DNA of 64,000 bases from Bacteroidota bacterium (GTDB lineage Bacteria; Bacteroidota; Bacteroidia; Cytophagales; Spirosomataceae). The DNA lies in the NCBI GenBank assembly GCA_041158445.1, contig JBEBBJ010000002.1:6672-70671 (forward strand), in the 5' to 3' direction. Positions 35,824 through 61,711 of this stretch are shown here, in pieces (the stretch's first letter is position 1; each line of letters begins with the position of its first letter). The notes below the pieces were generated by a model, which did not search any database, was not told the DNA's origin, and saw only the letters and a list, made by a program, of their open reading frames with translations. A program made the position numbers and the translations under genes.

Positions 35824-35897
35824 TCCTTCTTAGCTCAGTTGGTTAGAGCACATGACTGTTAATCATGGGGTCCCTGGTTCGAGCCCAGGAGAGGGAG
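35824..35897 (+). tRNA. tRNA-Asn (anticodon GTT)
   Basis: Hand-folded cloverleaf. Acceptor TCCTTCT/AGAGGGA, D stem GCTC/GAGC, anticodon stem CATGA/TCATG with loop CTGTTAA, T stem CCTGG/CCAGG with loop TTCGAGC. 74 nt. Confidence 0.9.
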
Positions 35898-35900
35898 CAA
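35856..35900 (+). repeat. attL core: 45-bp direct repeat (anticodon loop to 3' end of tRNA-Asn)
   Basis: ctgttaatcatggggtccctggttcgagcccaggagagggagcaa is identical to 61667-61711. Confidence 0.9.
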
Positions 35901-35905
35901 ACACG

Positions 35906-35932
35906 AAAGTCACTAGAAATAGTGACTTTTTT
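35906..35932 (+). terminator. Rho-independent terminator downstream of the intact tRNA (island-derived)
   Basis: aaagtcact / agtgacttt stem with a 6-nt loop, followed by a T-run. Confidence 0.7.
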
Positions 35933-36049
35933 CGTTTATAATCCATCTCTATTTCGTCTATTCATCGATTTTCTTGGTTCAAGACTAGTAGAGGGTTTAG
36001 TGTTTTTTCGACGATTTTAGTTGAGAGTTATACCTGTGATTTTAGTTTT

Positions 36050-36070
36050 GTGCCAAGAATGTGCCAAGAG
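36050..36070 (+). promoter_or_regulatory. Putative arm-type integrase binding sites (left end)
   Basis: gtGCCAAGAATgtGCCAAGAg, a tandem motif ~150 bp inside attL. The same tandem motif occurs at 61534-61558. Confidence 0.55.
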
Positions 36071-36249
36071 TTGGTTTTGGATCTGTGTTTATGTATTTCT
36101 AAATGCCTTATACTTATTGTAAGTTAAAGGAAGTTGATCATTACATAAAAAAGGAATAATTGAATATTCACAATGACCGAATGCATGCTAATTGCCCAAT
36201 TCATAAAATTTCACCACCATTAATGGTGATTTTCGAGATTAAAACATCT

Positions 36250-37920
36250 TTATGCTTTAATCTTCTTCAAATAGGAAACGGAAAATCCAGTCACCTGGGC
36301 GATGTCTTCTTCTCGGCGGCGTTCGCGGCGCATTTTGCGGACCAGGTCAAGGCGCTTAGAGCGGATGAGTTCGCCGGGTTTGTCGTTACCTAAAATATCA
36401 TTTAGCTGGAGTGGGTTGATTTTGAATTCGTAGCAAATGTTTACGATGGTGACATCTTTTAGGTTTGCGTCGATGTAGGCGATGATCTCTGCGGCTTTGG
36501 CTTTACTATCAGAAACAGGAGATTTTTTGCGTATAATGAGGTATATGCTTAGTCCTAAAAGAAGCACAATGAGTGCTGTTAAGCCATAAATAATTTCCTG
36601 CGAATGGTTCTCATACGAAGGTATGGCCTCTAGCTTGATCTCTTCTTGGCGCTGAATGACCAGCTGTTCTATTTGAGCTTTTGTTAATTGGTAATAGCCG
36701 TGAATAGTCCCTAAAAAGAAAAATGAAGGGGTTATATAAACGGCTCGGTGATTGAATTCATCTCGAATTAAATGAGGAATCCATTCCCTAGTATCTATAT
36801 TATAGCTAGACAACCCTTCATTAGAGGTAATCAGTAGGAGATTGTTTAATGGAATAATGTGGTGATTGCCCAGTAAGTTTTCTGCAAGATGTTGATAAGA
36901 GTACTTATTCTCTTGTAGATTAGACATCGCCTTAACCAACTTGTTTTCAGTTAAAAAATAGATGTTTGCAGTGGAATTCATGTAAACATCCTCGATGTTG
37001 CCTAGTTTAGCATCAATTTGTAATAATGTGGTGTAAGCATCATTAAGCAAATTGAATTTTTGTATTCTATTATTATCGATGTAATAAATTACAACTGGTA
37101 GATTGTCGCGGTAATAGGCCTTAATAAATCGTGGTTCAGGGCCAGATGTTTTCTTTTGAATCCAACGCAATTTTGTTTTCAAATCACTGATGCATAACCC
37201 TTTATCAGAAAAAAGAAGGTAGCGACTTGTATCTATTTTGAAGATATCTTTTACTTTACCTAAATCCACGCTCGCTACTTGAGTGTTCCCATTATTTGCC
37301 TCATAGCGCAGCGTATCCGTGCCCATGATGCGCATTAATCCATCATAACAGATGAATGTTTCCCCGGGATATTCCCGAATATACCCATTAGTGTATTCGG
37401 GGTAGGTGAATCGTTTGCCATTGGAAAATAATCCGCCGTAGGATCCAATAAAGTTTTTAGATAAGGTTCGAATACTCAGTGTATCTGCTTTCGGTTTTAC
37501 CGTCTTTTTGTAGATGAACAACTGCCCTTTAGAAATAATCAAAAGATTGTTTTTAAAAGTAGTCCCGATAATTGAATTGTGCCTAAATCCATCCGGTAAA
37601 AGTGGCTTGTAGTGCGGTGTAAACAGGTTTCCGTTTAAGTAAATGGAACTTTTTAACTGTCCATTCTCTAGAAAGATATAACCCTTCTTAGTCGAGTTAT
37701 CTACTTTTATATGTAAAGGATCTTTATAGGCCAAAACCCCGGCGTCACTCCCTATATATAGGTTCGTCCCCACATATTCAAAGTTATAATGGAAGCGTTC
37801 TGAGCTCACTGAAATGAGCTGGTAGCCAGACAAATCGTCCGCACTAGCAGTCAATTGACTCATCAAGAAAAGTGCCCATAGGGCGCCTAATCGGCCGAGA
37901 TGTTTTATGAATTTGCTCAT
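36250..37920 (-). CDS. Single-pass transmembrane one-component regulator: extracytoplasmic sensor domain + cytoplasmic AraC-type HTH
   Basis: 556 aa. Signal peptide (..LFLMSQLTASADD), a ~420-aa beta-rich ectodomain and a TM helix (IIYGLTALIVLLLGLSIYLII). C-terminal HTH segments ..VNICYEFKINPLQLNDIL.. and ..IAQVTGFSVSYLKKI. Divergent from the adhesin gene. Confidence 0.65.
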   Translation of the reverse strand: MSKFIKHLGRLGALWALFLMSQLTASADDLSGYQLISVSSERFHYNFEYVGTNLYIGSDAGVLAYKDPLHIKVDNSTKKGYIFLENGQLKSSIYLNGNLFTPHYKPLLPDGFRHNSIIGTTFKNNLLIISKGQLFIYKKTVKPKADTLSIRTLSKNFIGSYGGLFSNGKRFTYPEYTNGYIREYPGETFICYDGLMRIMGTDTLRYEANNGNTQVASVDLGKVKDIFKIDTSRYLLFSDKGLCISDLKTKLRWIQKKTSGPEPRFIKAYYRDNLPVVIYYIDNNRIQKFNLLNDAYTTLLQIDAKLGNIEDVYMNSTANIYFLTENKLVKAMSNLQENKYSYQHLAENLLGNHHIIPLNNLLLITSNEGLSSYNIDTREWIPHLIRDEFNHRAVYITPSFFFLGTIHGYYQLTKAQIEQLVIQRQEEIKLEAIPSYENHSQEIIYGLTALIVLLLGLSIYLIIRKKSPVSDSKAKAAEIIAYIDANLKDVTIVNICYEFKINPLQLNDILGNDKPGELIRSKRLDLVRKMRRERRREEDIAQVTGFSVSYLKKIKA

Positions 37921-37981: not shown

Positions 37982-38070
37982 GTACTTAAATGGATCAAAA
38001 ATACATTATTTGATGTTTTTTATGGTTTTTTAGTTTTTGTCTTTTGTACTGATAGGGGGAATGGAATGGG

Positions 38071-38078
38071 TAGTTTTG
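38071..38078 (+). promoter_or_regulatory. Bacteroidota -7 box (TAnnTTTG) for the giant adhesin operon
   Basis: TAGTTTTG, 37 nt upstream of ATG 38115. Confidence 0.45.
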
Positions 38079-38114
38079 AAATTGAACTGAAAAATTACCA
38101 AGAATTAAGACCTT

Positions 38115-41100
38115 ATGTCTATTAAATCTCGTTTGCAAAGATTTGCCTCTTTAAGTGTAGTATTATTCTCATTGATTTTGCCTGTTGTCAAAACACAAGG
38201 TCAAACTGCTCAATTTCAACTAACGGAAAGTGATGGATTAAATCCCTACTTGTATGTCATTGAAAAGTCTTCAGGCAGGGTATTTATGAATAATACCCTT
38301 TCTGATAATAGTATTCATGGACGGATTTACTTACCCAAAGGTGATTATCACACTTCAGATGCGACGGTTACCTATCTAGGAGAGGCAGCTAATGATGCGG
38401 TTATTCAAGTATACTCCTATAAGACTGATAGGCTCTATCCTAATATTAATGCTGCTTTATTCATTACGCAGTCTGGTAAGGCATATTTATATCAGTTGGA
38501 TTTAGGTGGTTATGATGTATGGAATCCACAATGGAAAGGAAACACACCTCGTTTAGTGAGTGTGGGATCTAATGAAGTAGTTATTGGTGGTCGCTTAATG
38601 AATGAAAGCATCACTCAAACTAATTATGCAATGAATTTATACCTGATTACACAATCAGGAAAGCTTTTTAAGTCTGCTTGGACAATGGGAACCGCTGGAG
38701 GATATAATACGAGTACAGAAGTTACAGGTGTAAGCGGAATAACAAGAATTAGCGGTAATGATAAAGACAAATTGTTTTTATTGACAAGTAGTAATGCGCT
38801 TTACTTGAGAAAAGATTTTGGAAGGTCTGGTGGGGGATTAGGGAATTTTTTAGTGAACATAAGCAGTCTACCCGCGGGTAGAACTATTTCAAAAATTGTA
38901 TCTAATACGAATGGGGATTTTGCTCTATTAGATAACGGTACCGTTTTCAGCATGGGAATTGAAATGGCTAATGGGACTGTTACAGCCAGTTTCGTTGCTT
39001 TACCATCTGGGCCAACCTATAATAGCGGGTCTGGTAATTTAGGGGAGGAATCGAATAATAAAATCACAAAAATTGCAGCTGCAGGTGATAAAATTGCTTT
39101 CATTACTGAGAAAGGCCAAGTATACCTTGCAGGAAGTGATTTAGTTGCGATGCCTGTGGATCATTTAGCAAATGTAACACAATCATTAAGTACAGATAGA
39201 GATAAGCATTGGTTATTGTCCAAACAAAGTGGACAATCATTATTTGGCGGATCTGCAAGTCCTACATATGATTTCTACGGAGATAATAGTGAGTCCGCTG
39301 CCACTGGATTTGCATTCTATGATAATGGACGTTTTGCTATTCAAGATAATGCGAATAATATTTTCATATATGGAGGTAGGCGCTATAATACAAATACGAC
39401 GAATTGGTCTGCAAGTGCTTCTGATTATACAAATGTTGATGTAAAAATTGGAGCAAACTATGTGGGATTACCCATGGTGGATTATGCTACAAATGGAATA
39501 TTAAATAGCTATGTTTCTGATGTAACCAAGCCTGTTTATACACTTACGCCTGTAAATTTCAAGAGTGGAGAAAGACATAATTCTAGAACTTTCCAGTTTA
39601 AATTAGAAGTGTCTGAAATGCCCCTTGTTCCACCTACTAATTTTATTAATACGGTAATAAATACAGGAACGGGTGCAGCAACAGTTAGCAATGTCAAATT
39701 CATTTCGGATTTTACACTGGCTAAAAAAGCGGTAGACCAAAAATACATTTATACTTTTGATGTAGTTATTTCAGGAACATCTACCATTTATGATGTTGAT
39801 GTTAATCTGCCTTTAGGAGTCATTAAAGATCGAAGGGGAAATATTGCTGACGGAACTTCTACCTTTAAATTATTATTAGATCTAAGCCCTACTACGGTAA
39901 CCTTACTAAACAGGGTTGTGACTAAGGATGTTGCCAAAGGTAAATGGTATGTGGACATTCAAGCCACACCAAACCGGATATATACTCCTTCCAGCCCTGA
40001 TAAAAAATTATTACCTAGTTCTTTCCAATTGGAACAAAACTATTATGGAAGTGCTCCAGCCAGCTTTAATGAAATTGCTGAAATTGGAAACGGTATTTAT
40101 CGCTTATATTTTGCCGAAGATTTTTCAACTTCAACCTATAGAAACGAAGATCTCGGATGGCAGTTCCATGCCGGTAATATTGTTGATTTTAACCAACAAA
40201 GCATCGAATTATACGGAGGTCTTTCTTATAGATTAGGCTTTTTAACGGGTAAAGAGGGTCCCAATTTTATCACTTTTATAGATGCAAGAAAACCAACTCC
40301 AGTAATTTCAGGAGTAAGTAATACGAATAATCCTTCTAATGGATCTAAAGGATTTAAAATACATATTCCACATGAATATGTTTCTTTGACAGAAGGAGAA
40401 GGGGATAATACCAAAATTGGAAAAGATGATATTGTCATAACCGTAAACGGCACAACGGTAACTAATACAACAAGTTATATCAGTAATTTTAGAAAGACAG
40501 AATTCTACAACGCAAGAGGTACAAACTATTTTGACATAGGTAGATGGTGGCCGAGTGAACAAACTTCAATTTTTGCCTATCAAGATTGGGAATTTACATT
40601 AACTCCACCCGCAGGTGTAGAGGGTACTATAACCGTATCAGTGGGGGCTAATACATTTGCAGACGCACGCGGAAATACCAATGTGGTGTCTAATGTGTAT
40701 TCTTGGACGCATGACATTACTCCTCCCACCATTTCAAACATAGTTGTTAGTGCTGATAATAAATATGCAGAAGTCACTTTTAGCGAGGATGTTAATTTTG
40801 TAAACAATGCATCAGGAGTATTGACTCCAGCAGATTTTGCTTTATCCATGGCAACAAATTCGGGTAATGCGTTTTTAGCGTCATCGGATTTAATACCTAT
40901 TAATCCAGATTTTTCAACTTCTAATGCTACTTATGTAGGGGTTAATCCGGTAACCAAAATAGCGAGTAATAAAATTAAAGTATTCTTTAAAAGCTCTTAT
41001 ACATCGGATGCTGGACCAGCTGAAATTCAAGATGAAGGACCATCTGATAGAAATTTCGACGTCCGTTCTGTAAAAAAGGCAAAAGGTGTCGAACAGTTAA

Positions 41101-44100
41101 CAGTAGGTGTTCTTATCGGTAAAATAAGTGACAAAGCAGGCAATCTAAATTCAGGAACAATTTCTTCTACGGTTGGTGCAGGAGCTACGTTAAAGGATTT
41201 GTATGCGCCAAGTTTGTCATTAGTGGTAAAGGGAAGTGATGCAGTAGCTATTAATGCAGGAGCCACAGTTCAAAAAGCGCCTTATGTATTTACTTATACT
41301 GCTGATGAAGCTTTGAGTGCATCTACTTCAATTACATTAGCGAATTTAAGTACGTATTTTAATGTTACTGGTACTTCAATTGCCTCTGTTACTTATGATG
41401 CAATAAATAAAAAAATTACATTAACTACTTCAAGTTCTATTACCGATGGGACGACTATTACTATTGCCGTAAAGACTAAAACCTTGTCCGATGTGGCAGG
41501 GAATTTAATGCGAAAAAACAATAGTTTTAGTTTTATACATAATACTGCAGCCATATCATTTGGTGGTTATATATACTCTACCATCGGAGGCAAAAAAGTC
41601 GGTGTTAGTACTATTACGGGTAATGGAACATACAATAAAAATTATTTCCAAATAAATACTTTTTGGTATGGTATAAATGGTGCTTTCAATGCTACTAATG
41701 GATATAATAAGTTACTGAATTGGGGAGGGTCCGCCCAAAATGGTACCATTGCGAATAGTAATTTTTCAATTAAAGTGTATCAAGCTGATGGAGTAACAGA
41801 AATTCCTGGTGCTGCTACATTGATTAATAGTGCGAATAATAGCTACACTAAAACAGATGAATTTGGGAATACTCAATACACTATTCAGGCTGATTTTAGT
41901 TTAAATTTTACACCTAATGGAACGGAGAAAATCACCTTTGGTCCTGTAAATGATAACACCTTTAAATTATCGGGTAGTAATAACCCGTGGCTAGCTAGTC
42001 AATCTTCTACTTTGACCGAATTGCCTGATCTAAGGAATGATGTTTCAATAACAGTTAAGGATGGAAATGGAGTAGATTTACCGGCCATGTCAACATTAAT
42101 TTCTGGAGGAACATTGTTTTCAAATACGACTCCAACTTCCATTACGAATGTTATCACTACTGATGTGATTAAAGTAAAAGTGAGTATTCCAACTTCATGG
42201 AATTCTATTGCAACTTATTTAACAAGTGGTTCACCAGGTTCTTTAACCACATTTGCAACACTTACTGATTATGTTAGAAGTACTTTATTTATTAATAAAT
42301 TGCCAACTTCAGGTAGTACATTGTCAACTTTATCTAATGGTTCGGATTATGTTTTGGAAAACTTTGTTACCTCAAATAACGGATTGACATGTGAATTTGA
42401 TTTGCGATTTATTAATAAAATAGATGCCACTAATTCAAAGTTTGCCTATTTTTCTTTAGGACAATTTTTTGGAATACCACCAGGGGGATATCAACAATTA
42501 TTTTCTGCCTATAATACAGCTGGAGTCAATACGGCAATAAATTCTACAAACTCTCCTCAACTGTATTACTATCTTGAAAATGGAATAACCCCATATATGT
42601 ATGCAGGACCTGGAGTGTATAGGAGTTATGGAGTAATTTATGCCTTTAGTGAGGTCCAGGGTTATGGTTCAATTAAAGTTACATCTACCGTTCAAGCTAG
42701 TACTAAAAAAGTATTAGGAGTTTACGATGTGGCTAATGAGAAATCACTCCCAGCAAATACATTCATTTGGTCTGTAAAAGATCCAGATAAAAATAAAGTA
42801 GCAGACACAAGGTTGCCAGGAGGTACTAGTAATGGATTTCCTGTATTTTACGGTGATCAATTTAATACGATTGATTTCTCAAACAATACAATGCCTGCCT
42901 CTGGATCTTATTTGATGAATTGGGCAAACTTTAAATCATCTCCCTCCTCATCCACATATAGTAATCACGATAATTGGGGATTCGGACAAGATTTACGAGA
43001 TGGTTGGAATAACGTAATAGTTTCAGCTGCCAGTAGAAAGGTAAATATCTATGCATACGAAAAAAGTGATGGAACAAGCCGTTCAATAGTTAATTATACA
43101 TCAGGGCCCACTGGAACATGGACTATACAAAAGCAGTTTAAAGCAACAAACAGTGTATTAGGATCTAATGACCTTTGGTTTATTACTGGTGCACCTACAA
43201 TTGCTTCAGCAGCTCTTGATGATATGGTTGCAAATCCATCGGATTATTATTATAGCACGGTTACAAACATGGATTTTGGCAGTACTCAAACAGCTACTGC
43301 ATCTAAATCCTATAAGTCAAAAATGGTATTAACTAGCGATGTGCAAAACGTAGCAGGTGATGCAGGTGATTTTACCGTTAATGATTTGACTTTTACTTCT
43401 ACCAATTCGGCTGTTACTATTTCCAATAAATCATTGACTAGAGTAGATGCCAAAAATTATACTTTATCTTTTGATGTATCAGGTTATGGAACTTCTACCA
43501 TTAAAATAAACATACCAAATAATAGTTATAAAAATACCTTAGGCGCATGGAATAAAGAAGACTTTACCGAGGCCTCAGCTATGGAATTTGTGTATCAAGG
43601 TCCATCCACTCCTGTAGTGACCCCGCGTGCTTTACCTACCATTTCCATGGAACTAAAAAGTGCTTTGGGTACGGTATTAAACGGTAAAACTAATTTGAAG
43701 GAAAATTTAAATTTAGAAGTCACCTGGGCAACAGCGGGTTCAACTTACACAAACACTTCTGATATTTATAATACCTATAATGATCCATTATTCTTAAAGA
43801 ATAATAATTTCTTAGTGACGGATAATACAGATTCTGATGGAGATGGTACGCCGGATTATTCAGCACAAGTTCTTTCTTCTTCTTTGATGTACCGTTCGGG
43901 AGATACGCGTTATCCGATAGGAGTTAAACTAGGTTTGAAAATTAATCTCGATCCTACACCTTATACATCTGGTTCAGGTAATAATACCACGGCAAATCAA
44001 TTCAAAGATGCACAATCTGTAAATATACCACGGAATATTTCGTTTACTATTCCGGCCAATACCTTTGCATTAGTACCTACCGACTATGTGGTTAGTACTA

Positions 44101-51974: not shown

Positions 51975-52864
51975 GAAAGATAGTATTAGCAGCGTTTCTA
52001 TTTTTAGGGGGACACGTCGTTTCAGCCCAAATCGAATCGATGTACTCGATGTACCAAATCAACCCCATCGTCTCTTCGCCAGCCTATGCAGGCCTAGTGG
52101 CGAATGGCGCGAAAGGGGAATTCGTCGCTATTAATCGCCAGCAATGGATAGGCGTGCAGGGTTCGCCACGCACCTCGTTGATGACGGGAAATTACCAGTT
52201 GAAACCGAAGATCGGGATAGGCGCCATTTTAGCGACCGATCAAGCGGGTCCTTTGCGCATTACAAGCGTGTCTGGTGATTTAGCGTACTCGGTTCGTTTG
52301 AATGAGGACTGGAAGATGAATGGCGGACTACGTCTTTCATTAGCGTCCGTTTACATCGATTATGCGGGACTTACGGCGATCGATATCAACGATCCCTACA
52401 TCCAAGTCAATAAGTCGACGGGGTTAAAAGCAAACACCGGTTGGGGCCTACATTTCGCGCATCGCGGGGGTAGCTTCTTATCAGTTTCGCAACCTCGGGT
52501 GCTGAGCTATGATTTTGGCAATTTATCCGGTGCGTTTAAGGACGTTTCGTATTTCTATTTGCAAGCAGGAACGGCTATTCAGGCGGCTCCGGGGATTCGT
52601 GTGAGCCCATCGGTGATGGCGCGTTTAGCTTCATCGACGCCATTTAGCTGGGATGCGAACGTGATCGTGAATCTACAAGAAAAAGTGGATGTGGGTCTGA
52701 TTTACCGCGATAAAATCAGTTATGGAGCGCGTGTAGGTGTACCTTTTTCTAAGAAAGTGTATGTGGCCTACACGGGAGAATTTCCGCTGGCGACCTTGAA
52801 TGCGTTTGGGGTGCAGACGCACGAATTAGCGCTTAAAATTTCCTTATTCGAGAAACAAAAATGA
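51971..52864 (+). CDS. PorP/SprF-family T9SS membrane protein
   Basis: 297 aa; signal peptide then ..SMYSMYQINPIVSSPAYAG.. (PorP/SprF N-terminal signature). ATGA overlap with the adhesin stop. Confidence 0.85.
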   Translation: MRKIVLAAFLFLGGHVVSAQIESMYSMYQINPIVSSPAYAGLVANGAKGEFVAINRQQWIGVQGSPRTSLMTGNYQLKPKIGIGAILATDQAGPLRITSVSGDLAYSVRLNEDWKMNGGLRLSLASVYIDYAGLTAIDINDPYIQVNKSTGLKANTGWGLHFAHRGGSFLSVSQPRVLSYDFGNLSGAFKDVSYFYLQAGTAIQAAPGIRVSPSVMARLASSTPFSWDANVIVNLQEKVDVGLIYRDKISYGARVGVPFSKKVYVAYTGEFPLATLNAFGVQTHELALKISLFEKQK

Positions 52865-53931
52865 GATCATATACACTAGTCTTTTTCCTGTGTGCCGTTT
52901 CGTATTTTTCATACGGCCAAAAATCCCTTTCCTTCTCCCTCGGTTCCACCGCTCGCTCTTTACAACAGGCATCGAACCGCCGAGATGTGCTTTTGGATTA
53001 CACTTCTGTGGGTGCGCAGTTCAGTTATTTCACTTCGCCTAAAGCAGAGCTTTTTAGCGGTGTTTCGTATGGTTTTCAGTCATCGGGTACTGCTAAGTTT
53101 GCTGGCGCGCAGGCCGGGATGCGGTATTTTCTGAACTTGCCTTTGCCTGCGCGCCTTCGGGTGTTTGGCCAATTTGCGGGGGAGGTTTTGTTAGATAATT
53201 CCTATGCGATTACGAACCGTGATGCTGATTTTATCGGTGCGGCTGGTGCAGGATTTGACTTTAAAATTTCGTCTGCTGTATCCTTACGTGGCTCCGCAAA
53301 TTTAGGGTTGCCCTTCCTTTCAACCGGGTCTTTAAGCCCGTACACAAACAGTGGATCTAATTTTACAGCAGGGATCGGTTTAGTGTTCTTATTGCCTTCG
53401 AAGAAAGAGGCTGTTGTTGCGCCTGTTATTGTGGTAGTGGAGGAGCCAATTGTTGCGGCTGTTGCGAGTCCTGAACCTGTGAAAGCCACAGTTCCTGCAC
53501 CGGTAATTAAAGAGCAAGCACCTGTGGTAGCTGTTGCGCCTGTTGATGAACGTGCTGAGCCAGTTGCTGTGCCTGCTGCGGTAGTGGTGGCCGAAGTGAA
53601 TTTGGACAGCTTATTCAATAAAGAAATTTACTTCAAGACAGATAAGTCTTGGGTGGGTCCTGAGTCTGCCAAAAAACTCGATTTAATCGTCGCTTTAATG
53701 GCAAAATATCCGGACGTGAAGGTGCACTTAAAAGGACACACAGATTACCGAAAATCAGAGGATTACAACTTAAAACTTTCTGCGAAGCGGGTGGAGAATG
53801 TGCGTTTGTATTTAGTTAAACACGGGGTAGCTGCAGCCCGTTTTAAAGCGGAGGCATTCTCCGAAGAGGTTCCAGCCTCTAGAACAGATTTACAATTAAA
53901 TCGCCGGGTGGAAGTCCGGATTTGGAAATAA
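52861..53931 (+). CDS. OmpA-family protein (beta-barrel-like N-domain, P/V/A-rich linker, OmpA C-terminal domain)
   Basis: C-terminus ..LKGHTDYRKSEDYNLKLSAKRVENVRLYLVKHGV..NRRVEVRIWK is an OmpA_C peptidoglycan-binding domain. ATGA overlap with the upstream gene. Confidence 0.85.
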   Translation: MRSYTLVFFLCAVSYFSYGQKSLSFSLGSTARSLQQASNRRDVLLDYTSVGAQFSYFTSPKAELFSGVSYGFQSSGTAKFAGAQAGMRYFLNLPLPARLRVFGQFAGEVLLDNSYAITNRDADFIGAAGAGFDFKISSAVSLRGSANLGLPFLSTGSLSPYTNSGSNFTAGIGLVFLLPSKKEAVVAPVIVVVEEPIVAAVASPEPVKATVPAPVIKEQAPVVAVAPVDERAEPVAVPAAVVVAEVNLDSLFNKEIYFKTDKSWVGPESAKKLDLIVALMAKYPDVKVHLKGHTDYRKSEDYNLKLSAKRVENVRLYLVKHGVAAARFKAEAFSEEVPASRTDLQLNRRVEVRIWK

Positions 53932-54185
53932 TGAAATCTATTCGCTTAAAATATTGTAGCGCCCAAGGCTGCACATTTAAGTTTGTGAACAAAGCAAATC
54001 TGAAAGAACACGTTATTTCAGAGAAGGATGGAGTTGTTTTTATACGCTTGTTTTTAAAGACAGGAGAAGAGATTTCGCTATCTGGCGTATCTGAGACGGT
54101 AGAAATAATTAACCTGCGCTGGTCGCGGTTTGAGACTTCGGATGAGATCTTTTTTGATCTCGCAGAGTTCGAAGTGATAAATTAA
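53931..54185 (+). CDS. Small hypothetical protein (84 aa), last gene of the adhesin operon
   Basis: ATG 53931 overlaps the OmpA stop (TAATG). A terminator follows at 54205-54236. I recognise no family. Confidence 0.45.
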   Translation: MKSIRLKYCSAQGCTFKFVNKANLKEHVISEKDGVVFIRLFLKTGEEISLSGVSETVEIINLRWSRFETSDEIFFDLAEFEVIN

Positions 54186-54204
54186 TTTAGAACACGGAGT
54201 TTTG

Positions 54205-54236
54205 AAACCCTTTGGCTATTGGCTGAAGGGTTTTTT
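54205..54236 (+). terminator. Rho-independent terminator ending the adhesin operon
   Basis: aaaccctt (54205-12) pairs with aagggttt (54226-33), followed by TTT. Confidence 0.65.
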
Positions 54237-54647
54237 CATTATAAGGGTTTACTTTTCTTTTGGGCAAGTTTTTTTGTATTTAAGGTTTAAAGCGTACAAT
54301 CCTATTATAAATCGTTTATTTTTTACATTATATAAGCGGATGTTTCCAGTTAGTTTTGAGTGTTTGAAAAAGGCGGGCTAATTACAAAGTATTCCGATAA
54401 AGGGAAGAGAGTACTTGAATTCTGGTGAAAAAAACTGGAAAATTTTTAAATCAAATTTCGAGGCTTACTGGATTGAGAATCATTTTTTTCCAGAATTTTT
54501 GTTCTCGAAAGTAAGTATCCCCCTGTATTTTGAAGTTTTTTGTCTATTACTAGTCCTGGGATACCTAGGGAGGGAAGGGGGCTAGGGGCTGATCAAACAT
54601 GATCATAACTTAAGTTTACTGGATTATGATGAATTGAAAAAAGGTCA

Positions 54648-55262
54648 CTATAACCTATTCATGAGTTTTTTGATTTTGGTTATAGTGTTAATGTTTAATC
54701 CAGTAATCTTTGCGACTTCTGATCCTTTGTAATTCTTTTTTATAAGTTCCATCGCTCGCCTATTCTTCACTTTAGATAAAAATTTCAGCGGGTCTTCTTT
54801 GGTATTGGGTTTTCTTCCTAAATATACATCCCCTTTGAGCTTTGCTAGAGCGACCCCTTCTTTCTGTCTCTCTAGCGTGAGCTTTCTTTCCATCTCCGCT
54901 ACGACCCCAAGAATCGAAATCACCATTTTAGAAATTGGATTTTCTTCCCCATTTTCATGGATGGTACAAAGTCCTTGGTTGATAAACTTAACAGGGATTT
55001 TTCTCTCAGTAGTATATTTAATAAAAGAAAGAATGTCATGAAGATCTCTTCCACACCGATCAATTTGCCAAATAGATATACTTGATACCAAATTCAGGTC
55101 GATGAGTTTTTTAAGTTCAATCCCGCCGGTTCTAGAAAACATGGAAATACTTCCACTACAACGGTCTTCAATGACCTTATCGAAATCTTTTTCATTTACA
55201 CGTTGTCGGTCTGAGTTTTGTTCAATGGTGCTGCAACGCACATAAAGGATGGAAATACTCAT
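54648..55262 (-). CDS. Serine recombinase (resolvase/invertase family) with C-terminal HTH
   Basis: From the internal ATG 55262: MSISILYVRCSTIEQNSDRQ (catalytic Ser motif). ..IWQIDRCGRD.. and a C-terminal HTH (..VAKITGLNINTITKI). Confidence 0.8.
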   Translation of the reverse strand: MSISILYVRCSTIEQNSDRQRVNEKDFDKVIEDRCSGSISMFSRTGGIELKKLIDLNLVSSISIWQIDRCGRDLHDILSFIKYTTERKIPVKFINQGLCTIHENGEENPISKMVISILGVVAEMERKLTLERQKEGVALAKLKGDVYLGRKPNTKEDPLKFLSKVKNRRAMELIKKNYKGSEVAKITGLNINTITKIKKLMNRL

Positions 55263-55376
55263 AAAATTAGCTTGGTAGGGTGATAAGGCTAATTTCCAGA
55301 GAATAAACCGGTATTGCTGCATTTTTAAGCCGCTTTTTCAAATTTAAAGATGCGCAATAAAAAGTACACCCTAAAT

Positions 55377-55574
55377 TTAGGAGTCCGAATTGCGCTTGAA
55401 GAAGTCATTTAGTAAATCACTAGCCTTTAAGCGGATCTCAAACTCTTTTTGATGTAACCTTCTCCATTCTACAGCAACTGGATCGTCCGATGTAATTAGT
55501 AGATTGAATTCTTCTTTGGTCAAATCAGAAAGTTTCTTAATTGAATTAAGTGGTTTAAATTCTTCAGCTTTCAT
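55377..55574 (-). CDS. Hypothetical small protein (65 aa)
   Basis: ORF only, co-oriented with the recombinase. No recognisable motif. Confidence 0.35.
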   Translation of the reverse strand: MKAEEFKPLNSIKKLSDLTKEEFNLLITSDDPVAVEWRRLHQKEFEIRLKASDLLNDFFKRNSDS

Positions 55575-55942: not shown

Positions 55943-56692
55943 ATGTCAGAACGATATTTGAATGTTCCTTATAGTATCCTATTAAATCCCAATCTAACAT
56001 GTGATGAGAAATTCATCCTTGCAGAAATTGTATCCCTTGATAAAAGACCCAGAGGTTGTACCGCTAGTGATAACCATTTTGCTGAAATCATAAATAAGAC
56101 AAGACAGACTACTAATGGTATAATAAAGAACCTGGAGTTCAAAGGATTAATTCATATTGAAGTCAGACCTGGAGTTGGGAAGAAGACTAAACCTGCGGCC
56201 AAATTTTGGGAGTTAATCAAAATACGTGTCGAGAATGATGACACCTTGGAATCCAATCAGAAGGATAGAGGTGTCGGAAAAACTGATACCACGTGTCGGG
56301 ATTCAATACAGGTAGGTGTCGAGTTTCATGACACCACGTGTCGAGATTCCGACACAACTAATACAATTACTAATACAGATATACTAATACAAAGAGAATT
56401 ACAATATACTGGGGCAACCGCTAGTCTGTCTGTTGAATATAAAAAAATAGAAAAGCTCCTCTCTACAGATCCAGCATTTATTTCAAATGATTTTCTAATA
56501 GATTTCCAGTACTATTCTTTTAAACTAGAGGAATACTTTGGGTCTAGCATCTTTGAGCAAATGAATATTTTAAAGACTAATCAAGAGATATATGAGATTT
56601 ATAATGCTACTAATTTGCATGGGATCCGGGATGAATTAAACTTCGTAAAATCAAATATGGCTAGATTTCTAAGAATTGAAACATATATATAG
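55943..56692 (+). CDS. Winged-helix DNA-binding protein (possible replication/regulatory protein of the island)
   Basis: The N-terminal ~90 aa resemble wHTH phage/plasmid Rep-organiser proteins (..CDEKFILAEIVSL..NHFAEIINKTRQTTNGIIKNLEFKGLIHIE). The central region is encoded by repeated GTGTCG-containing DNA (DTTCRDS twice). Confidence 0.45.
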   Translation: MSERYLNVPYSILLNPNLTCDEKFILAEIVSLDKRPRGCTASDNHFAEIINKTRQTTNGIIKNLEFKGLIHIEVRPGVGKKTKPAAKFWELIKIRVENDDTLESNQKDRGVGKTDTTCRDSIQVGVEFHDTTCRDSDTTNTITNTDILIQRELQYTGATASLSVEYKKIEKLLSTDPAFISNDFLIDFQYYSFKLEEYFGSSIFEQMNILKTNQEIYEIYNATNLHGIRDELNFVKSNMARFLRIETYI

Positions 56693-56844: not shown

Positions 56845-56851
56845 TATCGCT

Positions 56852-57550
56852 ATGATTAAAACACATAAAAATATCCGTAATGTTTTAGGGGAGCTTTTAG
56901 CCTCTGAAGACTATAATAAGAACCTGTTAGAGGTTCTTAAAAAGAACGTTTCAATAGATTTTAATGACATCGTTTCATCATTAAATGAAATTTACAATGA
57001 TGGTGGAGATTTGTTGAAATCAAAAGCAACTGTTGAGGAAGAATCAGTTGTAATAAAACGTAACAAGGTAATTAACAAAAACTACTCTGGACTATTAGAG
57101 CAAATTTTAAATAATGAAGGTGAGTTTATTACAGAACTAAGATTGTTTAAGCACCTTGAAACGATAATTATTAATACGCAATTTTTATTAAATCTTAATT
57201 TTAAAATTTCATTTTTAAAGCAGAAAAAGGGTTTATCTACACGTACTTATCTAATTGCAAAAGCTCCATTTTATTTACCAGATGCTGTTAGACAAGAAGC
57301 GAGAGTTTATGTTAGAAAGAATGTTTTAGAATTATATGAAATAGAAGATGGAGATAGAGTAGAAGACTATCAATGTGACGAAAAGGTAATGCAATTGGCA
57401 AAGGAGCAATTACTTAAAAGTATGCATAGTTCAATTATAAGAACACTAATGGAGTTTCATGATTTGAAAAATAATGTCAAATATGATTCTAACATAGTTC
57501 GTTTGTACAACCAATATTTTAACGATCTTAAAAAAGTCAAAAAAGAGTAA
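56852..57550 (+). CDS. Hypothetical protein (232 aa)
   Basis: ORF only; K/E/N-rich and helical-looking. No motif recognised. Confidence 0.4.
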   Translation: MIKTHKNIRNVLGELLASEDYNKNLLEVLKKNVSIDFNDIVSSLNEIYNDGGDLLKSKATVEEESVVIKRNKVINKNYSGLLEQILNNEGEFITELRLFKHLETIIINTQFLLNLNFKISFLKQKKGLSTRTYLIAKAPFYLPDAVRQEARVYVRKNVLELYEIEDGDRVEDYQCDEKVMQLAKEQLLKSMHSSIIRTLMEFHDLKNNVKYDSNIVRLYNQYFNDLKKVKKE

Positions 57551-57614: not shown

Positions 57615-59138
57615 ATGACACATAAAATCAACATTCAAGAAATCGAAATTGATTTCATCAAAATTCACCCTTTGCTTGAGCAATTTGTGAAACCCAAAAA
57701 GAAGGACCACATCGAATACACCATGCATCGTTTGGGTCAATTCACACCTTTACTAGGAAACCTAGTTGACGGAACATTCTACGTCACAGATGGGATTGTA
57801 CGATTGGACGTTGCAAAATCTTTAGGACTGAAAACACTACAATGTTTACACGTTAACATCCCCGATGAAGATGTAGTGAAGATTAGATTAACTAGTAATC
57901 AACGAACGACTATGTCATACTCAGAGATGGCACACTATGCGGAACATTTATTAGGTCTTTTGGGGAAATCTCAAGGTAAGAAAAGAGACTTAATGGGATT
58001 TGATTTTGTTGACAAAGACGATCATTACGGATTGATTGGAAAGAATCGATTTGAGTTGGTATGCCACCTTCTTAACCTACCTATCAAGGCTTCATCCTTA
58101 CGGAAATTGATGGAAGTTAAATGGTTTGAAGATGATAATCCGGATAACAAAATTGGAGTAATGGCTGGTTTGGAAAATGGATTATATAAAATTGATAAAG
58201 CCCATCAATTACTAGGGGAAAAAGGAAAGAAGGAAGCCCAAATTGCAGAAAGAAAACGTAGAGATTTTGAGGGAAAAGTAAATGATGTAAGTTATCATTT
58301 ATTTAACACGTCCTCACTAGACCTGTCTGATATTCCTGATTCTAGTTTTAGAATGTTCATTCAATCCCCACCATATTTTCAACTTCGCGATTATGTAAAT
58401 CAGTTAAAAGACTTTGTTCATGGTCAAGAGAAGACCTTAACGGAATACATTGAAAATGAAATTAAGTTTTACGAAGGGACTAAGAGAAAGCTACTTCCCA
58501 ATGGGGTAATTGTTATTATTATTGGGGAGACATACAGAGATGGCTACCAGGGTGTTTGTACCAAATTGGAAACGGCTTTAGCTGAAAATGGGTGGTATAT
58601 TTTTGATGTAAATACCTTTGTTAAGACCAATGCCAAGGCTACCCCTCATATTGGAAGATTTCTGAATTCTAAGGAAACAATCATTGTAGCAGGATTACAA
58701 CCCTACACAGAAACATTGTTCAATGATGTTACAAGACCATCATCCATTGGAGAATTTAAAGTAATACCGGGTTCTTCAAGAACTTCAGGGGCTAAGGGAT
58801 ATTCCATGGCCTCTCCTGAATCATCCATTACTAATGTATTTATTGAATCCGTATTTCAAAAGTCTGAATATGATGATGTTGATGAAGACTTCTATCACCA
58901 AGCTCCCACTTCAATTAACATTTATGAGAAGTTCATTAAGGCTTATAGCAATCCAGGGGATAACGTTGGAGATTTATTTGTAGGGAGTGGATCTGGACTT
59001 GAAAGTGCAATTTTAAACGGAAGAAATGGGTACGGGTGGGACGTGGACCACAAGTCGATTGAATTTTGTAACAAACGTTTGACAAAAAGACTTAAGGAGC
59101 GCATGAATAACAAAGAAGTATTATTACAAGCAGCATAA
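57615..59138 (+). CDS. ParB/Srx-like N-terminal domain fused to a beta-class N6A/N4C DNA methyltransferase
   Basis: ParB-like ..FYVTDGIVRLDVAKSLG.. (DGxxR). Motif IV FIQSPPYF precedes motif I VGDLFVGSGSGLESA near the C-terminus, the order typical of N-4/N-6 methylases. Confidence 0.75.
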   Translation: MTHKINIQEIEIDFIKIHPLLEQFVKPKKKDHIEYTMHRLGQFTPLLGNLVDGTFYVTDGIVRLDVAKSLGLKTLQCLHVNIPDEDVVKIRLTSNQRTTMSYSEMAHYAEHLLGLLGKSQGKKRDLMGFDFVDKDDHYGLIGKNRFELVCHLLNLPIKASSLRKLMEVKWFEDDNPDNKIGVMAGLENGLYKIDKAHQLLGEKGKKEAQIAERKRRDFEGKVNDVSYHLFNTSSLDLSDIPDSSFRMFIQSPPYFQLRDYVNQLKDFVHGQEKTLTEYIENEIKFYEGTKRKLLPNGVIVIIIGETYRDGYQGVCTKLETALAENGWYIFDVNTFVKTNAKATPHIGRFLNSKETIIVAGLQPYTETLFNDVTRPSSIGEFKVIPGSSRTSGAKGYSMASPESSITNVFIESVFQKSEYDDVDEDFYHQAPTSINIYEKFIKAYSNPGDNVGDLFVGSGSGLESAILNGRNGYGWDVDHKSIEFCNKRLTKRLKERMNNKEVLLQAA

Positions 59139-59186: not shown

Positions 59187-59522
59187 ATGACTGAAGCTGT
59201 CAAAAACAAAAAAAAAGAATTTGGAGACCTTATTCAAAAACTTGAATCTCATGAATGCCATTTCGGTAGTTATATTATTGAAGATGTTGATATTATCTCT
59301 TCCATTGGACATCATTTTGATTACAATTATGATGTGATCGATTATAATCTCTTGGTGAAATATCTGAATGATAAAAAAGAGGAGATTTCCAATTTGGTAA
59401 ATAAAAACTTTGGCAATTATGAATCAGATATTTTGGAGGGGATTGATGAAGATATTTGGAGTGAATTTGGTGATGAAATTGTAAAATTATGCAATTTAAA
59501 TTCAGGTAATTCTGATAAATAA
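59187..59522 (+). CDS. Hypothetical acidic protein (111 aa)
   Basis: ORF only; strongly D/E-rich. Confidence 0.4.
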   Translation: MTEAVKNKKKEFGDLIQKLESHECHFGSYIIEDVDIISSIGHHFDYNYDVIDYNLLVKYLNDKKEEISNLVNKNFGNYESDILEGIDEDIWSEFGDEIVKLCNLNSGNSDK

Positions 59523-59713
59523 TCGCCTAAAAATAATCACAACATCATCGTGATTTAGAATTCCATAGTTAAATCTGGAATATTGAAATCCTCATCAAAT
59601 CGATGGGTAGGGGGATTTGTGTATTAAATATTAGAAACCTGTGGGTGTATAGGATGTCAAACCCTCTTCAAACTTTAACCTTTTGGTGTATAAGGTCAAC
59701 CATAATTTTTAAA

Positions 59714-59992
59714 ATGATTGCAGAGAAATCATTATCAATTGGTAAAAATGGAAGTTTTGAAGTTTATCAGAAATTGCGTTTTGAACAAAAATTGAATATC
59801 TGTCTAATGGCGGATCGTGATATGCTTAGACATTTCTTTGGGGTAGAATTTACGAATAAAGAATGGGATGACTTTTTGAAAATGTGTGATGAGTTCTATT
59901 TGGAAAATAAGCACAGCTGGACAAACGAAATCATTAAAAAATGGAAACGAGCCAAATCCAAAAAGCAAAACTCAATTAAAATGACTTCATAG
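59714..59992 (+). CDS. Hypothetical protein (92 aa from internal ATG)
   Basis: ORF only. The ATG at 59714 (MIAEKSLSIG..) is preferred over the upstream non-ATG start. Confidence 0.35.
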   Translation: MIAEKSLSIGKNGSFEVYQKLRFEQKLNICLMADRDMLRHFFGVEFTNKEWDDFLKMCDEFYLENKHSWTNEIIKKWKRAKSKKQNSIKMTS

Positions 59993-60064
59993 GAAGTTAT
60001 GAATTAGTATGCGGCGTCATTGAATTGGAAGCAATATCTTTGGCGCCGTTTTCAACAAACTACA

Positions 60065-60313
60065 ATGAGAGACTTCGTTTTCGACTACACAAAGTACCTA
60101 ACCATAAAGATGACATGTGACTATCTTAATATATCACGTTCCACATTAGGCGCATGGATGAAAGAAGGTAAGATACCATTTTCAAGGATTGGTCGTTCAC
60201 CTCGATTCGACAGAGAAGAACTTGATCAGTGGATTAAATCAGGAGTAAGAACAACTATGGAGTTACCTCCATTACCAACATTAAATAGAAAAGTACGCTA
60301 TGGCAACAATTAA
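60065..60313 (+). CDS. Excisionase-family (MerR-like) HTH DNA-binding protein
   Basis: ..LTIKMTCDYLNISRSTLGAWMKEGKIPFSRIGRSPRFDREELDQWI.. is the excisionase/AlpA-type pattern. It overlaps the integrase start. Confidence 0.7.
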   Translation: MRDFVFDYTKYLTIKMTCDYLNISRSTLGAWMKEGKIPFSRIGRSPRFDREELDQWIKSGVRTTMELPPLPTLNRKVRYGNN

Positions 60314-61532
60314 TATTAGATTAGATAAGAGAGGGAATAGACCCGATAAACATGGGAGATTTAATCTTTCTGTCATTGTTCAGCACCAAGGTGAAGTCTT
60401 ATACCTGAATGTTGATAAGCTGACGGAACAACAGTATAACCACGTTTTTGTTAAGCGTTCGTTGGATGACAAGAGTAAAGAATACCGGCTACGATGTGAT
60501 GAGTTTTTAGAGAAGGCGGAGAAGGTATTCGCAAGAGTAATACCATTTGATAGACAACAGTTTAGAGAGGAGTTTTTTAAGGAGGAGGTAGTTGAACCGG
60601 TCGTTAAGGTTACACCAACTGAAATGACCTATTTCGAAATGGCGGAATATTTTAGAGAGAATAAGAGATTAAAACCTGCCTCGAAAAACAGAATGAAGAC
60701 CGCAAGAAACCAGTTGGAAAAGTTCAAGCCAGGGTTAACCTACAAGGACATTACCGTTAACTTCTTACATGATTTTGAATATGAGGTATCGAAACGAGGC
60801 GGTTCACCAGCAACCATTTCAGGCTACATGACAGATATTCGTACTGTCTTAAATTACCACAGAAACATCACCAAGTTTATTCCTCAAGATTATGAGTATC
60901 CATTTGGAGCAGGTGGTTATGGTATCAAAACGTTCTTCCCAACCAAGATAGTTTTAGGTGCTGAGGAAATCCAATCTATTGCGGAATTAACAGAGTTTGA
61001 AACCACAAAACAGGAATGGGCGCGTGATATTTGGTTGTTTTTATATAGATGTAATGGAATCAATTTTGTGGACCTTTTGGCGATGAGATGGAACCATATC
61101 CAAAGCGGTAGTTTTATCTTCTATAGGACAAAAACCAAGACCACAAGAAGGAGTAATATTAAACCCATCTCGGTGCCAATTGATGATAAACTACAAGCGG
61201 TGTTGGACAAGATTGCTGTTAAGGATAGTCCTTTTATTATCGGAAAGATGAAGGATGGATATACCGATACTACCTTGGCAAATAAGTCTCATAAGTTATG
61301 TGCTGAGATAAACAAGGAGCTCAATTATGTTACGCAGAAATTGAACTTGTCATTAAGTCTTGTCTTAGATATTGCTAGAGACTCTTATGCGACTACGCTT
61401 AATAGAAATGGGCGTTCAATTAATCATATCGCAGAATGTATGGGGCATGCTTCGCCGGTCATTACTTCAAAACATTATGTGGGGCAATTATCGAAAGAGC
61501 AGGTCATGGAGATTAATAGTTGTTTGTATTAA
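60300..61532 (+). CDS. Tyrosine-type site-specific integrase (Bacteroidota type with N-terminal arm-binding domain)
   Basis: 410 aa. N-terminus MATINIRLDKRGNRPDKHGRFNLSV.. resembles arm-binding domains. C-terminus ..ARDSYATTL.. and ..MGHASPVITSKHYV holds the catalytic Arg, His and Tyr box. Confidence 0.85.
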   Translation: MATINIRLDKRGNRPDKHGRFNLSVIVQHQGEVLYLNVDKLTEQQYNHVFVKRSLDDKSKEYRLRCDEFLEKAEKVFARVIPFDRQQFREEFFKEEVVEPVVKVTPTEMTYFEMAEYFRENKRLKPASKNRMKTARNQLEKFKPGLTYKDITVNFLHDFEYEVSKRGGSPATISGYMTDIRTVLNYHRNITKFIPQDYEYPFGAGGYGIKTFFPTKIVLGAEEIQSIAELTEFETTKQEWARDIWLFLYRCNGINFVDLLAMRWNHIQSGSFIFYRTKTKTTRRSNIKPISVPIDDKLQAVLDKIAVKDSPFIIGKMKDGYTDTTLANKSHKLCAEINKELNYVTQKLNLSLSLVLDIARDSYATTLNRNGRSINHIAECMGHASPVITSKHYVGQLSKEQVMEINSCLY

Positions 61533-61533
61533 T

Positions 61534-61558
61534 GCGCCAAGAATCACGCCAAGAATGG
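61534..61558 (+). promoter_or_regulatory. Putative arm-type integrase binding sites (right end)
   Basis: gcGCCAAGAATcacGCCAAGAATgg, ~110 bp inside attR. It matches the tandem motif at 36050-36070. Confidence 0.55.
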
Positions 61559-61666
61559 TGAACATAGATGAACAAATTCGGACAATCAATATTAATTAGT
61601 TTAAGATTATGTTTATATGGGGGTTTAAACCCTGTATGATAACATTAGGTTATGACCCTTTTCAAT

Positions 61667-61711
61667 CTGTTAATCATGGGGTCCCTGGTTCGAGCCCAGG
61701 AGAGGGAGCAA
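61667..61711 (+). repeat. attR core: displaced 3' half of tRNA-Asn (45-bp direct repeat)
   Basis: Identical to 35856-35900. No 5' half of a tRNA lies upstream. Confidence 0.9.

Follow-up and report, generated by a model that had tools for sequence, protein, structure and literature searches.

Does the giant adhesin operon that lies between two copies of the 3' part of a tRNA-Asn gene belong to a mobile element, and did the DNA between these copies arrive as one unit? The locus is located in a 64,000-nt stretch of DNA (hereafter the window; positions 6,672 to 70,671 of contig JBEBBJ010000002.1, assembly GCA_041158445.1) from a Bacteroidota bacterium of the family Spirosomataceae; coordinates refer to the window or, when they follow a designation such as L001, to one of the related sequences. 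The original prediction, made from the letters of the window, had described positions 35856-61711 as an island inserted into tRNA-Asn with an adhesin system as its cargo. Our analysis makes it rather likely that this region is an integrative non-conjugative element in the tRNA-Asn 3' end of an Aquirufa-like Spirosomataceae host, with the adhesin cassette in its cargo slot. The ends of the element are formed by the following features:

35824-35898, plus strand: tRNA-Asn(GTT), predicted by ARAGORN; its 3' 43 nt belong to the left attachment (att) core, attL
35856-35900, plus strand: attL core, left copy of the 45-bp direct repeat CTGTTAATCATGGGGTCCCTGGTTCGAGCCCAGGAGAGGGAGCAA (exact match)
35905-35930, plus strand: terminator A, first part of the P' arm (-14 kcal/mol, z -5.3 versus shuffles; conserved in five contexts)
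35973-35995, plus strand: dT, a decayed tRNA T-arm-like remnant inside the P' arm, read from the sequence and conserved in L001, L045, L031 and L034
36050-36070, plus strand: M, the P'-arm tandem repeat GTGCCAAGAATGTGCCAAGAG, a putative arm-type integrase site and the inner limit of the conserved arm
60020-60313, plus strand: Xis, an excisionase-family helix-turn-helix (HTH) protein or recombination directionality factor (HTH_17; PF12728, 3e-14; TIGR01764, 3e-14), overlapping the start of int
60300-61532, plus strand: tyrosine integrase (Int) with a SAM-like N-domain and a catalytic domain (PF00589, 33 bits versus cut-off 27.1; phrog_1, 3e-22)
61536-61556, plus strand: GCCAAGAAT-CAC-GCCAAGAAT, the tandem repeat of the P arm and a putative arm-type site for the integrase; the right core begins 110 nt further on
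61667-61711, plus strand: attR core, right copy of the 45-bp repeat, the displaced tRNA-Asn 3' part
61715-61745, plus strand: terminator B, on the host side (B'), common to L002 (-16.5 kcal/mol, z -4.9 versus shuffles)

The tRNA-Asn(GTT) gene is the single tRNA detected by ARAGORN in the 64-kb window. The copies of CTGTTAATCATGGGGTCCCTGGTTCGAGCCCAGGAGAGGGAGCAA are identical in 45 of 45 positions, as had been claimed, and bracket 25.8 kb; the repeat extends from the anticodon loop to 2 nt beyond the tRNA 3' end, and a fuzzy search allowing up to 12 mismatches found no third copy in the window. Such a duplicated tRNA 3' segment in the role of attL and attR is one of the features expected of a tRNA-integrated tyrosine-recombinase island. 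Directly 3' of each core copy there is a hairpin followed by a T-run, consistent with the predicted separate terminators, and dT in the P' arm is probably an older att core.

The excisionase-like HTH protein and the tyrosine integrase, expected at the right end, were both recovered by family models. Xis scores 53 bits with TIGR01764 (cut-off 28.8), as a recombination directionality factor should. The integrase gene lies beside the att site, and its catalytic residues R242, R360, H383 and Y393 are invariant in 22 sequences, while the usual first His of box II is replaced by Ala or Asp. Both reading frames are intact.

The tandem GCCAAGA motif, placed by the original prediction at 36050 and 61534, is real and sits about 2 nt away from these positions, GCCAAGAAT-GT-GCCAAGAG occupying 36052-36070, 152 nt past the left core. 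GCCAAGAAT occurs three times in the window, always on the plus strand (at 36052, 61536 and 61548). Its significance comes from its position and its conservation in relatives and not from the count, which by itself is weak (0.8 expected; three reached in 5 of 100 shuffles). In particular, none of the 28 distinct attR regions lacks GCCAAGAAT-N3-GCCAAGAAT, and its distance to the T-arm downstream is exactly 151 nt in each. In the alignment of these 28 regions the invariant elements are this repeat, a GGACA motif, TTTAAAC and the core; before the repeats and after GGGAGC the sequences are unrelated, and the whole looks like the pattern expected of a conserved P arm. The P' arm (terminator A, dT and M) is 81% identical in five of five independent contexts, and its homology stops 3-8 nt after M, from where unrelated cargo follows. 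This conservation at both ends agrees with the proposed arm-like nature of the repeats. The arm motif was not found in a scan of IMG/VR. In L045, positions 6125-6475 contain, contiguously, the int stop, P-arm repeats, core, terminator A, decayed T-arm and P' repeat, the core having a compensatory T-stem variant (CTTGG...CCAAG); this stretch may be either an attP or a junction of tandem elements.

In the proposed mechanism, attP would be composed of a P arm (two copies of GCCAAGAAT, 110 nt), the 45-bp core (tRNA 3' part) and a P' arm (terminator, dT and GCCAAGAAT-GT-GCCAAGAG), and a variable cargo slot would separate this P' arm from the recombinase gene. The integrase, guided by the arm repeats, would recombine the core with the tRNA gene, Xis would assist excision, and the element's own tRNA 3' end and terminator would keep the tRNA functional. 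Here the slot would hold a propeller-sensor/HTH regulator, a 4619-aa type-B adhesin, its cognate PorP/SprF, an OmpA/PorE-like anchor and a small open reading frame (ORF). Since type-B substrates need their own PorP-like partner, the cassette would be portable to any host with the core type IX secretion system (T9SS), while spread between cells would need a helper (a conjugative element, phage or transformation), because transfer genes are absent. Indeed, among the 14 island ORFs no relaxase, type IV secretion system (T4SS) or coupling protein was found with Pfam, NCBIfam and PHROGs (oriT was not searched for), and PADLOC detected no relaxase or T4SS in the nine backbone ORFs and the regulator, in agreement with the predicted lack of relaxase and conjugation genes. 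Four small island ORFs have no assigned family, and the island was not classed as an integrative and conjugative or integrative and mobilizable element. The integration mechanism is conventional, of the textbook type; the cargo is unusual for its family.

The prediction had presented the cargo as a self-contained surface system, which is correct for the adhesin operon; left unmentioned was a conserved backbone of about 7.5 kb (54.6-60 kb, from the recombinase to Xis), comprised of the following genes in addition to xis:

54648-55322, minus strand: serine recombinase of the DNA-invertase/resolvase type, first backbone gene (PF00239, 2e-20; phrog_125, 3e-35; weak Mpi-family match)
55377-55574, minus strand: small ORF, 65 aa, present in seven relatives by tblastn, no family match
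55943-56692, plus strand: replication-initiator (Rep)/DnaD-like protein, a weak assignment (phrog_428, 1.9e-9, and three further Rep families)
56852-57550, plus strand: ORF, 232 aa, no family matches
57615-59138, plus strand: ParB-N-like domain fused to an N6/N4 DNA methyltransferase (MTase), an orphan methylase
59187-59992, plus strand: two small ORFs, 111 and 129 aa, the latter conserved in L014 and L017

Homologues of the integrase, 80-95% identical, were found in Aquirufa aurantiipilula (15D-MOB), A. originis (KTFRIE-69F), an uncultured Aquirufa, Sandaracinomonas limnophila (FSY-15) and about 30 contigs from metagenome-assembled genomes (MAGs) and metagenomes. Every locus that is long enough shows the same order of int, tandem GCCAAGAA, 151 nt, the T-arm of a partial tRNA-Asn and a terminator, sometimes with one or two extra genes between int and GCCAAGAA. 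The common backbone of the relatives consists of the recombinase (62-89% identical), the 65-aa ORF, a Rep-like protein (39-68% identical) or a BT4734-N-like one, ParB-MTase, Xis and Int. The cargo left of the recombinase gene varies:

L016, L017, L019, L043, L058: copper resistance
L014, L021, L040, L057: RND efflux with DUF6660/DUF3987
L020: ABC/HlyD/OEP efflux

None of the integrase-family relatives has tblastn matches to the regulator, adhesin ends, PorP, OmpA or small ORF of the window. This family of tRNA-Asn elements of Aquirufa and Sandaracinomonas is previously undescribed. It is not a phage family as far as the searches cover: PHROGs gave no virion genes (matching only the integrase, Xis, invertase, Rep-like protein and MTase), IMG/VR contained no prophage or phage-satellite relatives, and no plasmid with DNA similarity to the backbone was found. 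A pattern search of IMG/VR for the integrase gave 235 matches, of which tblastn confirmed none as relatives, and a profile sequence search identified no relative of the integrase in PDB. No defence system was detected by PADLOC, the methylase and Xis matching only generic MTase and mad1/mad2 models.

Relatives of the host locus were found by exact protein sequence look-up of the flanking genes. The HxlR protein encoded right of the island, after terminator B, by a chromosomal gene (61772-62110, minus strand) occurs on many contigs, including L001, which is 577 kb long and belongs to assembly GCA_027491195.1. This contig has the efflux genes of the left flank, tRNA-Asn and HxlR in the same order and orientation as the window flanks, with 95-96% DNA identity of the flanks and 453 of 454 identical amino acids in the MFP. 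Between tRNA-Asn and HxlR it has 7.4 kb encoding DUF2911, multicopper oxidase, DUF3347, CMD and other proteins, and both integrase and adhesin are absent from this interval. The comparison of related genomes, named as a check by the original prediction, therefore places different DNA, lacking the adhesin, between the same flanks and the same tRNA. In L002-L005 yet other genes adjoin HxlR, and the site is polymorphic (L001-L010 versus the window, L006, L009 and L011); as other DNA occupies the same site in L001-L005, the adhesin island is accessory there. The homology between the window and L001 covers the left flank and the tRNA and continues to 36082, including terminator A, dT and GCCAAGAAT-GT-GCCAAGAG, and resumes at 61740. 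Moreover, the copper module of L001 is 88% identical to the copper cargo of the family elements, in the opposite orientation, so that L001 holds a decayed sibling element.

These comparisons bear on whether the window could be a chimera joined at the 45-bp repeat, given that k-mer-based assemblies of the same population break there. Both flanks are syntenic on the single 577-kb contig L001, the junction of tRNA and P' arm is seen independently in L001, and L011, an independent metagenome contig, joins the adhesin C-terminus, PorP, OmpA, the backbone, int, the core and HxlR; an assembly artefact is thus the least probable of the explanations considered, with hardly any chance left to it.

The cassette itself has counterparts elsewhere. 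Homologues of the regulator, 43-88% identical and divergent from a giant CHU_C adhesin gene, were found in A. lenticrescens, L029, L030 and L085, while L028 ends at the regulator homologue. The neighbours of these pairs are chromosomal (adh_short, Fic, gldM/gldN), and no tRNA, core or arm repeat was found near them. Homology of the cassette to the window ends on the left at the regulator stop codon (36250/36257) and on the right at 54242, about 55 nt after the small ORF; the adhesin bodies are not alignable, except for about 1 kb near the C-terminus. The 18-kb cassette thus appears to be a genus-typical, otherwise chromosomal module acquired by the window element, and it is because the regulator-adhesin pair is otherwise chromosomal in Aquirufa that capture by the element is the presumed route by which the cargo was gained. 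The cassette is not flanked by repeats of 9 nt or more, which would be a signature of transposition, and no insertion sequence was found at it. The junction of cassette and backbone (54.2-54.65 kb) was scanned for an att remnant (core, dT or arm repeat), and none was found either with up to 12 mismatches or by word-7 blastn against the junctions of six relatives.

The chromosomal distribution of the pair might suggest that the operon is ancestral beside tRNA-Asn and that a small element of about 7.5 kb was inserted next to it; in L019, L043 and L058 a P'-arm fragment does lie directly left of the backbone. Such a history is very improbable and largely refuted, since the cassette is missing between tRNA-Asn and HxlR of the near-conspecific L001, the cassettes of other species have other neighbours and no tRNA, a small tRNA element would itself adjoin the tRNA and leave the adhesin outside the repeats, and an att remnant is absent at 54.2-54.65 kb.

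In A. lenticrescens (L027; CP049834, 1185670-1207343) two neighbouring loci encode giant type-B adhesins, one comprised of a 6785-aa adhesin, PorP, OmpA, the 84-aa ORF and Fic, the other of a regulator divergent from a 3832-aa adhesin. The window cassette looks like a combination of the two, its regulator end resembling one and its small-ORF tail the other.

Several observations weigh against an element that both entered and moves as a whole. Neither an excised circle nor an empty attB was observed, the assemblies breaking at the 45-bp repeat, and no truly empty tRNA-Asn site was found among the relatives compared. The window is the sole family member seen complete, as the left ends of the relatives, with the full tRNA, lie outside the compared DNA; a search for their attL via the copper-module protein yielded contigs that were short or had rearranged P' arms. 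The reading of the GCCAAGAAT repeats as putative arm-type sites draws on position and conservation only. The GC content along the island changes from 0.36 to 0.42-0.48 and then to 0.34. Relatives carry by HxlR a strongly decayed tRNA 3' copy (...CACCTAGTAAGGGAGCAA) where the window has an intact core, a difference that is unexplained by one simple integration. Finally, the history of the element is mosaic, and the cassette may have entered a resident element instead of travelling with the backbone; in such a mosaic family, insertion of everything between the repeats in a single event is not to be assumed.

The lack of a directly seen excision, the absence of transfer genes and the decay of many relatives at the locus (L001, L042) would also suit a fixed island, in which att sites and int are present but domesticated and the adhesin operon is a strain-specific chromosomal locus. 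We regard this as unlikely, because the cores are identical in 45 of 45 positions, compared with about 40% difference in the decayed copies elsewhere, the int and xis frames are intact with invariant catalytic R, R, H and Y, the arm repeats do not deviate from the family consensus, and at least two independent samples yielded an identical integrase.

The locus has evidently been used before. A conserved, strongly decayed tRNA-Asn 3' copy, TGGCTGCAACATTCCACCTAKTAAGGGAGCAA, is present in L001 (10380-10440), L002 (10390-10430), L003 (10380-10440), L031 (2205-2236) and L034 (3293-3325), followed by HxlR or by a fresh P' arm; such copies indicate old attR sites and a serial accretion of islands. 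In L042, positions 10490-11960 contain an intact attR core and then two decayed cores, each with a terminator, with one small gene between them, which together form an array of minimal island remnants. Similar arrays, in which elements are followed by further island starts, are found in L050 and L045. By these signs, the tRNA-Asn locus is a recurrent, long-standing integration hot spot with decayed att copies. The original claim that everything between the cores was inserted therefore stands as far as an att-bounded element in the tRNA is concerned, while insertion in a single step does not, given the accretion hot spot and the older decayed copy in the left arm.

It is accordingly possible, with a probability well below that of the reading given at the outset, that the island is an accreted mosaic, the cassette and the int backbone having arrived separately by tandem integration or homologous recombination with their junction erased, so that they never moved as one and only now could. 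The island remnants at the locus (L042 cores; L050 and L045 arrays), the decayed cores by HxlR in L001-L003 and the decayed T-arm in the P' arm of the window would all fit, as would the steps in GC content at about 48 kb and 54 kb and the 93-95% identical int/P-arm modules found joined to quite different backbones. Against it, no remnant of a core, dT or arm repeat separates the cassette from the recombinase gene, relatives regularly have their cargo in this same slot beside the backbone, and tandem integration would put the backbone of the newcomer by the tRNA and not distal to the adhesin. The present 25.8-kb unit is nonetheless flanked by perfect att sites, would excise whole and is presumably mobile.

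Rearrangements in relatives affect the same arm. The distal half of the P' arm (dT and GTGCCAAGAATGTGCCAAGAG) is inverted between the copper cargo and the backbone in L043 (3255-3400), L058 (140-215) and L019 (3840-4010), the GTGCCAAGAATGTGCCAAGAG repeat of L019 having the orientation opposite to that of L043, and in L001 the whole copper module is flipped. These changes are located at the arm repeat or adjoining it, with the invertase-type gene as neighbour, and may represent site-specific inversion. A bolder reading, of which we are doubtful, is that the family is a modular cargo-exchange platform, in which M and the adjacent invertase-type recombinase form a docking or inversion point for swapping or flipping modules; the copper, RND and ABC efflux modules and the 18-kb adhesin cassette would fit it.

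The cassette of the window includes the following features:

36250-37920, minus strand: transmembrane one-component regulator, 556 aa, divergent from the adhesin gene
38115-51974, plus strand: giant secreted adhesin-like protein, 4619 aa, with Ig/cadherin-like repeats, Ca-binding TSP3-like repeats and a T9SS type-B C-terminal domain
51971-52864, plus strand: PorP/SprF-family outer-membrane shuttle/anchor (PF11751, 8e-43; TIGR03519, 159 bits versus cut-off 90.6)
52861-53931, plus strand: OmpA-family peptidoglycan-binding protein (PF00691, 1e-14)
53931-54185, plus strand: small conserved ORF, 84 aa from ATG, coupled to the OmpA gene
54204-54234: terminator after the 84-aa ORF

The starts and stops of the four genes from the adhesin to the small ORF overlap, and family matches identify the adhesin with its type-B domain, PorP/SprF and the OmpA-like protein, as originally described. 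The adhesin has a Sec signal peptide and a type-B sorting domain (PF13585, 8e-25; TIGR04131, 58 bits versus cut-off 35), the two features of a T9SS type-B substrate, and the porP/sprF-like gene, whose start overlaps the adhesin stop, is directly downstream. A homologue of the 84-aa ORF follows OmpA in A. lenticrescens as well. In Flavobacterium johnsoniae, type-B substrates require a PorP/SprF-like protein encoded directly downstream; a PorE-like gene in the operon (Fjoh_3952/3951/3950) leads to static, presumably peptidoglycan-anchored complexes, while moving adhesins such as SprB have no linked PorE-like gene (PMC12618676, PMC9143113). Aquirufa species glide and have genomes of about 3 Mb with about 40% GC (PMC9163014). 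By the published criterion, the linked OmpA/PorE-like gene would assign the window operon to the static class, so that it probably encodes a cell-wall-anchored type-B complex and a moving gliding adhesin is unlikely. The label "SprB-like" in the original prediction was too loose: family searches gave no SprB-specific match among the operon proteins, and, unlike in sprB/sprF, the adhesin gene is linked to a PorE-like one.

As in Fjoh_3952/3951/3950 (PMC12618676, PMC9143113), the gene order in the window is type-B substrate, PorP/SprF-like and OmpA/PorE-like protein, a cognate shuttle is required, and a static peptidoglycan-anchored surface complex is predicted. Unlike there, the OmpA protein resembles PorE in the C-terminal OmpA domain only (NF052230, 70 bits versus cut-off 600), and the window has an extra small ORF, a divergent sensor-regulator and a location on an integrative element.

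Within the adhesin gene, the GC content rises from 0.36 (38000-48000) to 0.42-0.48 (48000-54000), the latter region covering the last 4 kb of the gene together with PorP and OmpA. The A. lenticrescens adhesin aligns to that of the window over about 1 kb near the C-terminus only (49273-50284, 81%). This suggests a conserved C-terminal or secretion module joined to a fast-changing passenger. There is also an internal duplication, 46986-47423 versus 49950-50387.

The divergently transcribed regulator had been predicted to be a transmembrane AraC-type sensor-regulator. An AlphaFold (AF2) model built from 20 homologues (pLDDT 83.8) has an N-terminal signal or transmembrane helix, a beta-propeller (residues 32-411), a transmembrane helix (439-462) and seven C-terminal helices (475-552), and the best Foldseek matches are the periplasmic sensor domains of BT4663, BT4673 and BT3049 of B. 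thetaiotaomicron (2e-11). The predicted model thus supports a transmembrane propeller sensor, while the AraC label was not confirmed by sequence models: neither Pfam nor NCBIfam recognises the regulator, HTH_AraC giving E = 0.11 (13 bits versus cut-off 26.6). In a comparison of the family profile with PDB sequences the top four matches were MarA, SoxS and RamA, at weak E values of 0.1-0.35, over residues 470-548. The C-terminus is weakly AraC-like, and the regulator is likely, though not established, to be AraC-type. A CTP_transf_3 match (E = 0.003, below cut-off) was rejected as spurious, since the region folds as a beta-propeller. The regulator shares with BT4663, BT3049 and BT4673 the periplasmic beta-propeller fold and probably the AraC-like HTH output; unlike them, it has no kinase, phosphotransfer or receiver domains, one transmembrane helix joining the sensor to the putative HTH, this HTH is too divergent for Pfam, and it is coupled to adhesin genes and not to polysaccharide-utilisation loci.

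Among known systems, the closest in logic are tRNA-integrating tyrosine-recombinase islands of the P4/lambda type, such as the Yersinia high-pathogenicity island at asn-tRNA genes. The window element resembles them in integration at a tRNA 3' end with a replacement 3' end and direct repeats at both ends, in int and xis at one end with putative arm repeats on both sides of the core, and in absence from close relatives and accretion at the same tRNA. It differs in several respects: the phage integrases of the collection share no more than 25-31% identity with its integrase, for which PDB contains no sequence relative; the backbone genes (invertase, Rep-like protein, ParB-MTase) and the putative GCCAAGAAT arm repeats are peculiar to the family; and its host is a freshwater Cytophagia-type bacterium and its cargo a T9SS adhesin operon. 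NBU1 and NBU2 are small mobilizable elements of Bacteroides that integrate into tRNA 3' ends by a tyrosine integrase, carry a mobilization protein and oriT, and depend on a helper for transfer. The window element is similar in its Bacteroidota host, tRNA 3'-end integration by a tyrosine integrase and presumable dependence on a helper, while, unlike in NBUs, family searches detected no relaxase or Mob homologue in it.

In the literature searched, and for that literature only, there is no report of T9SS adhesin operons on integrative elements. A substrate, shuttle, anchor and regulator on an integrase-driven element form a minimal transferable unit for a new surface adhesin of Bacteroidota. If the cassette moves, it would be a simple route for close freshwater strains to differ in attachment or particle association; if the cargo-exchange reading were true, surface-attachment phenotypes in abundant freshwater Aquirufa would be horizontally exchangeable as one self-sufficient T9SS unit. 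Moreover, the tRNA-Asn family is easily recognised by the constant geometry of arm repeats and core, and may be used to map the flow of accessory genes (metal resistance, efflux, candidate defence). Together with its cargo, the modular family is a useful and testable lead on the spread of surface properties in freshwater Bacteroidota.

A second slot of variable content, empty in the window, separates int from the P-arm repeats in relatives. There it contains either a 221-aa gene together with a DUF2971 gene (candidate system PDC-S31 of PADLOC, 2e-17) or other, unassigned genes. The 221-aa/DUF2971 pair is found in L014 (11222-12647) and also in L041, L042, L051, L057, L058 and L062, and further second-slot stretches are L017 11262-12956 and L016 11230-12081; the genes of this slot are candidate defence genes. 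Beyond attR in L014 (12790-21230) and L017 (13098-21233) there is a second, inverted element with a large serine recombinase, its own ParB-methyltransferase, a BT4734-N-like protein and a small resolvase; it is a sibling backbone using another integrase type.

Outside the island, at a distance of 29 kb, the minus strand of 1-6921 encodes a second giant secreted protein, of which the window, cut at its left end, contains the N-terminal part (at least 2307 aa); this part includes a signal peptide and, near residue 2216, an F5/8 type C domain. The window (11647-11788) and L027 (13051-13196) share, at unrelated positions, 146 nt of intergenic sequence with 79% identity; this stretch is possibly a small dispersed repeat, and similar short repeats are present in the island regions of L016, L020 and L021.

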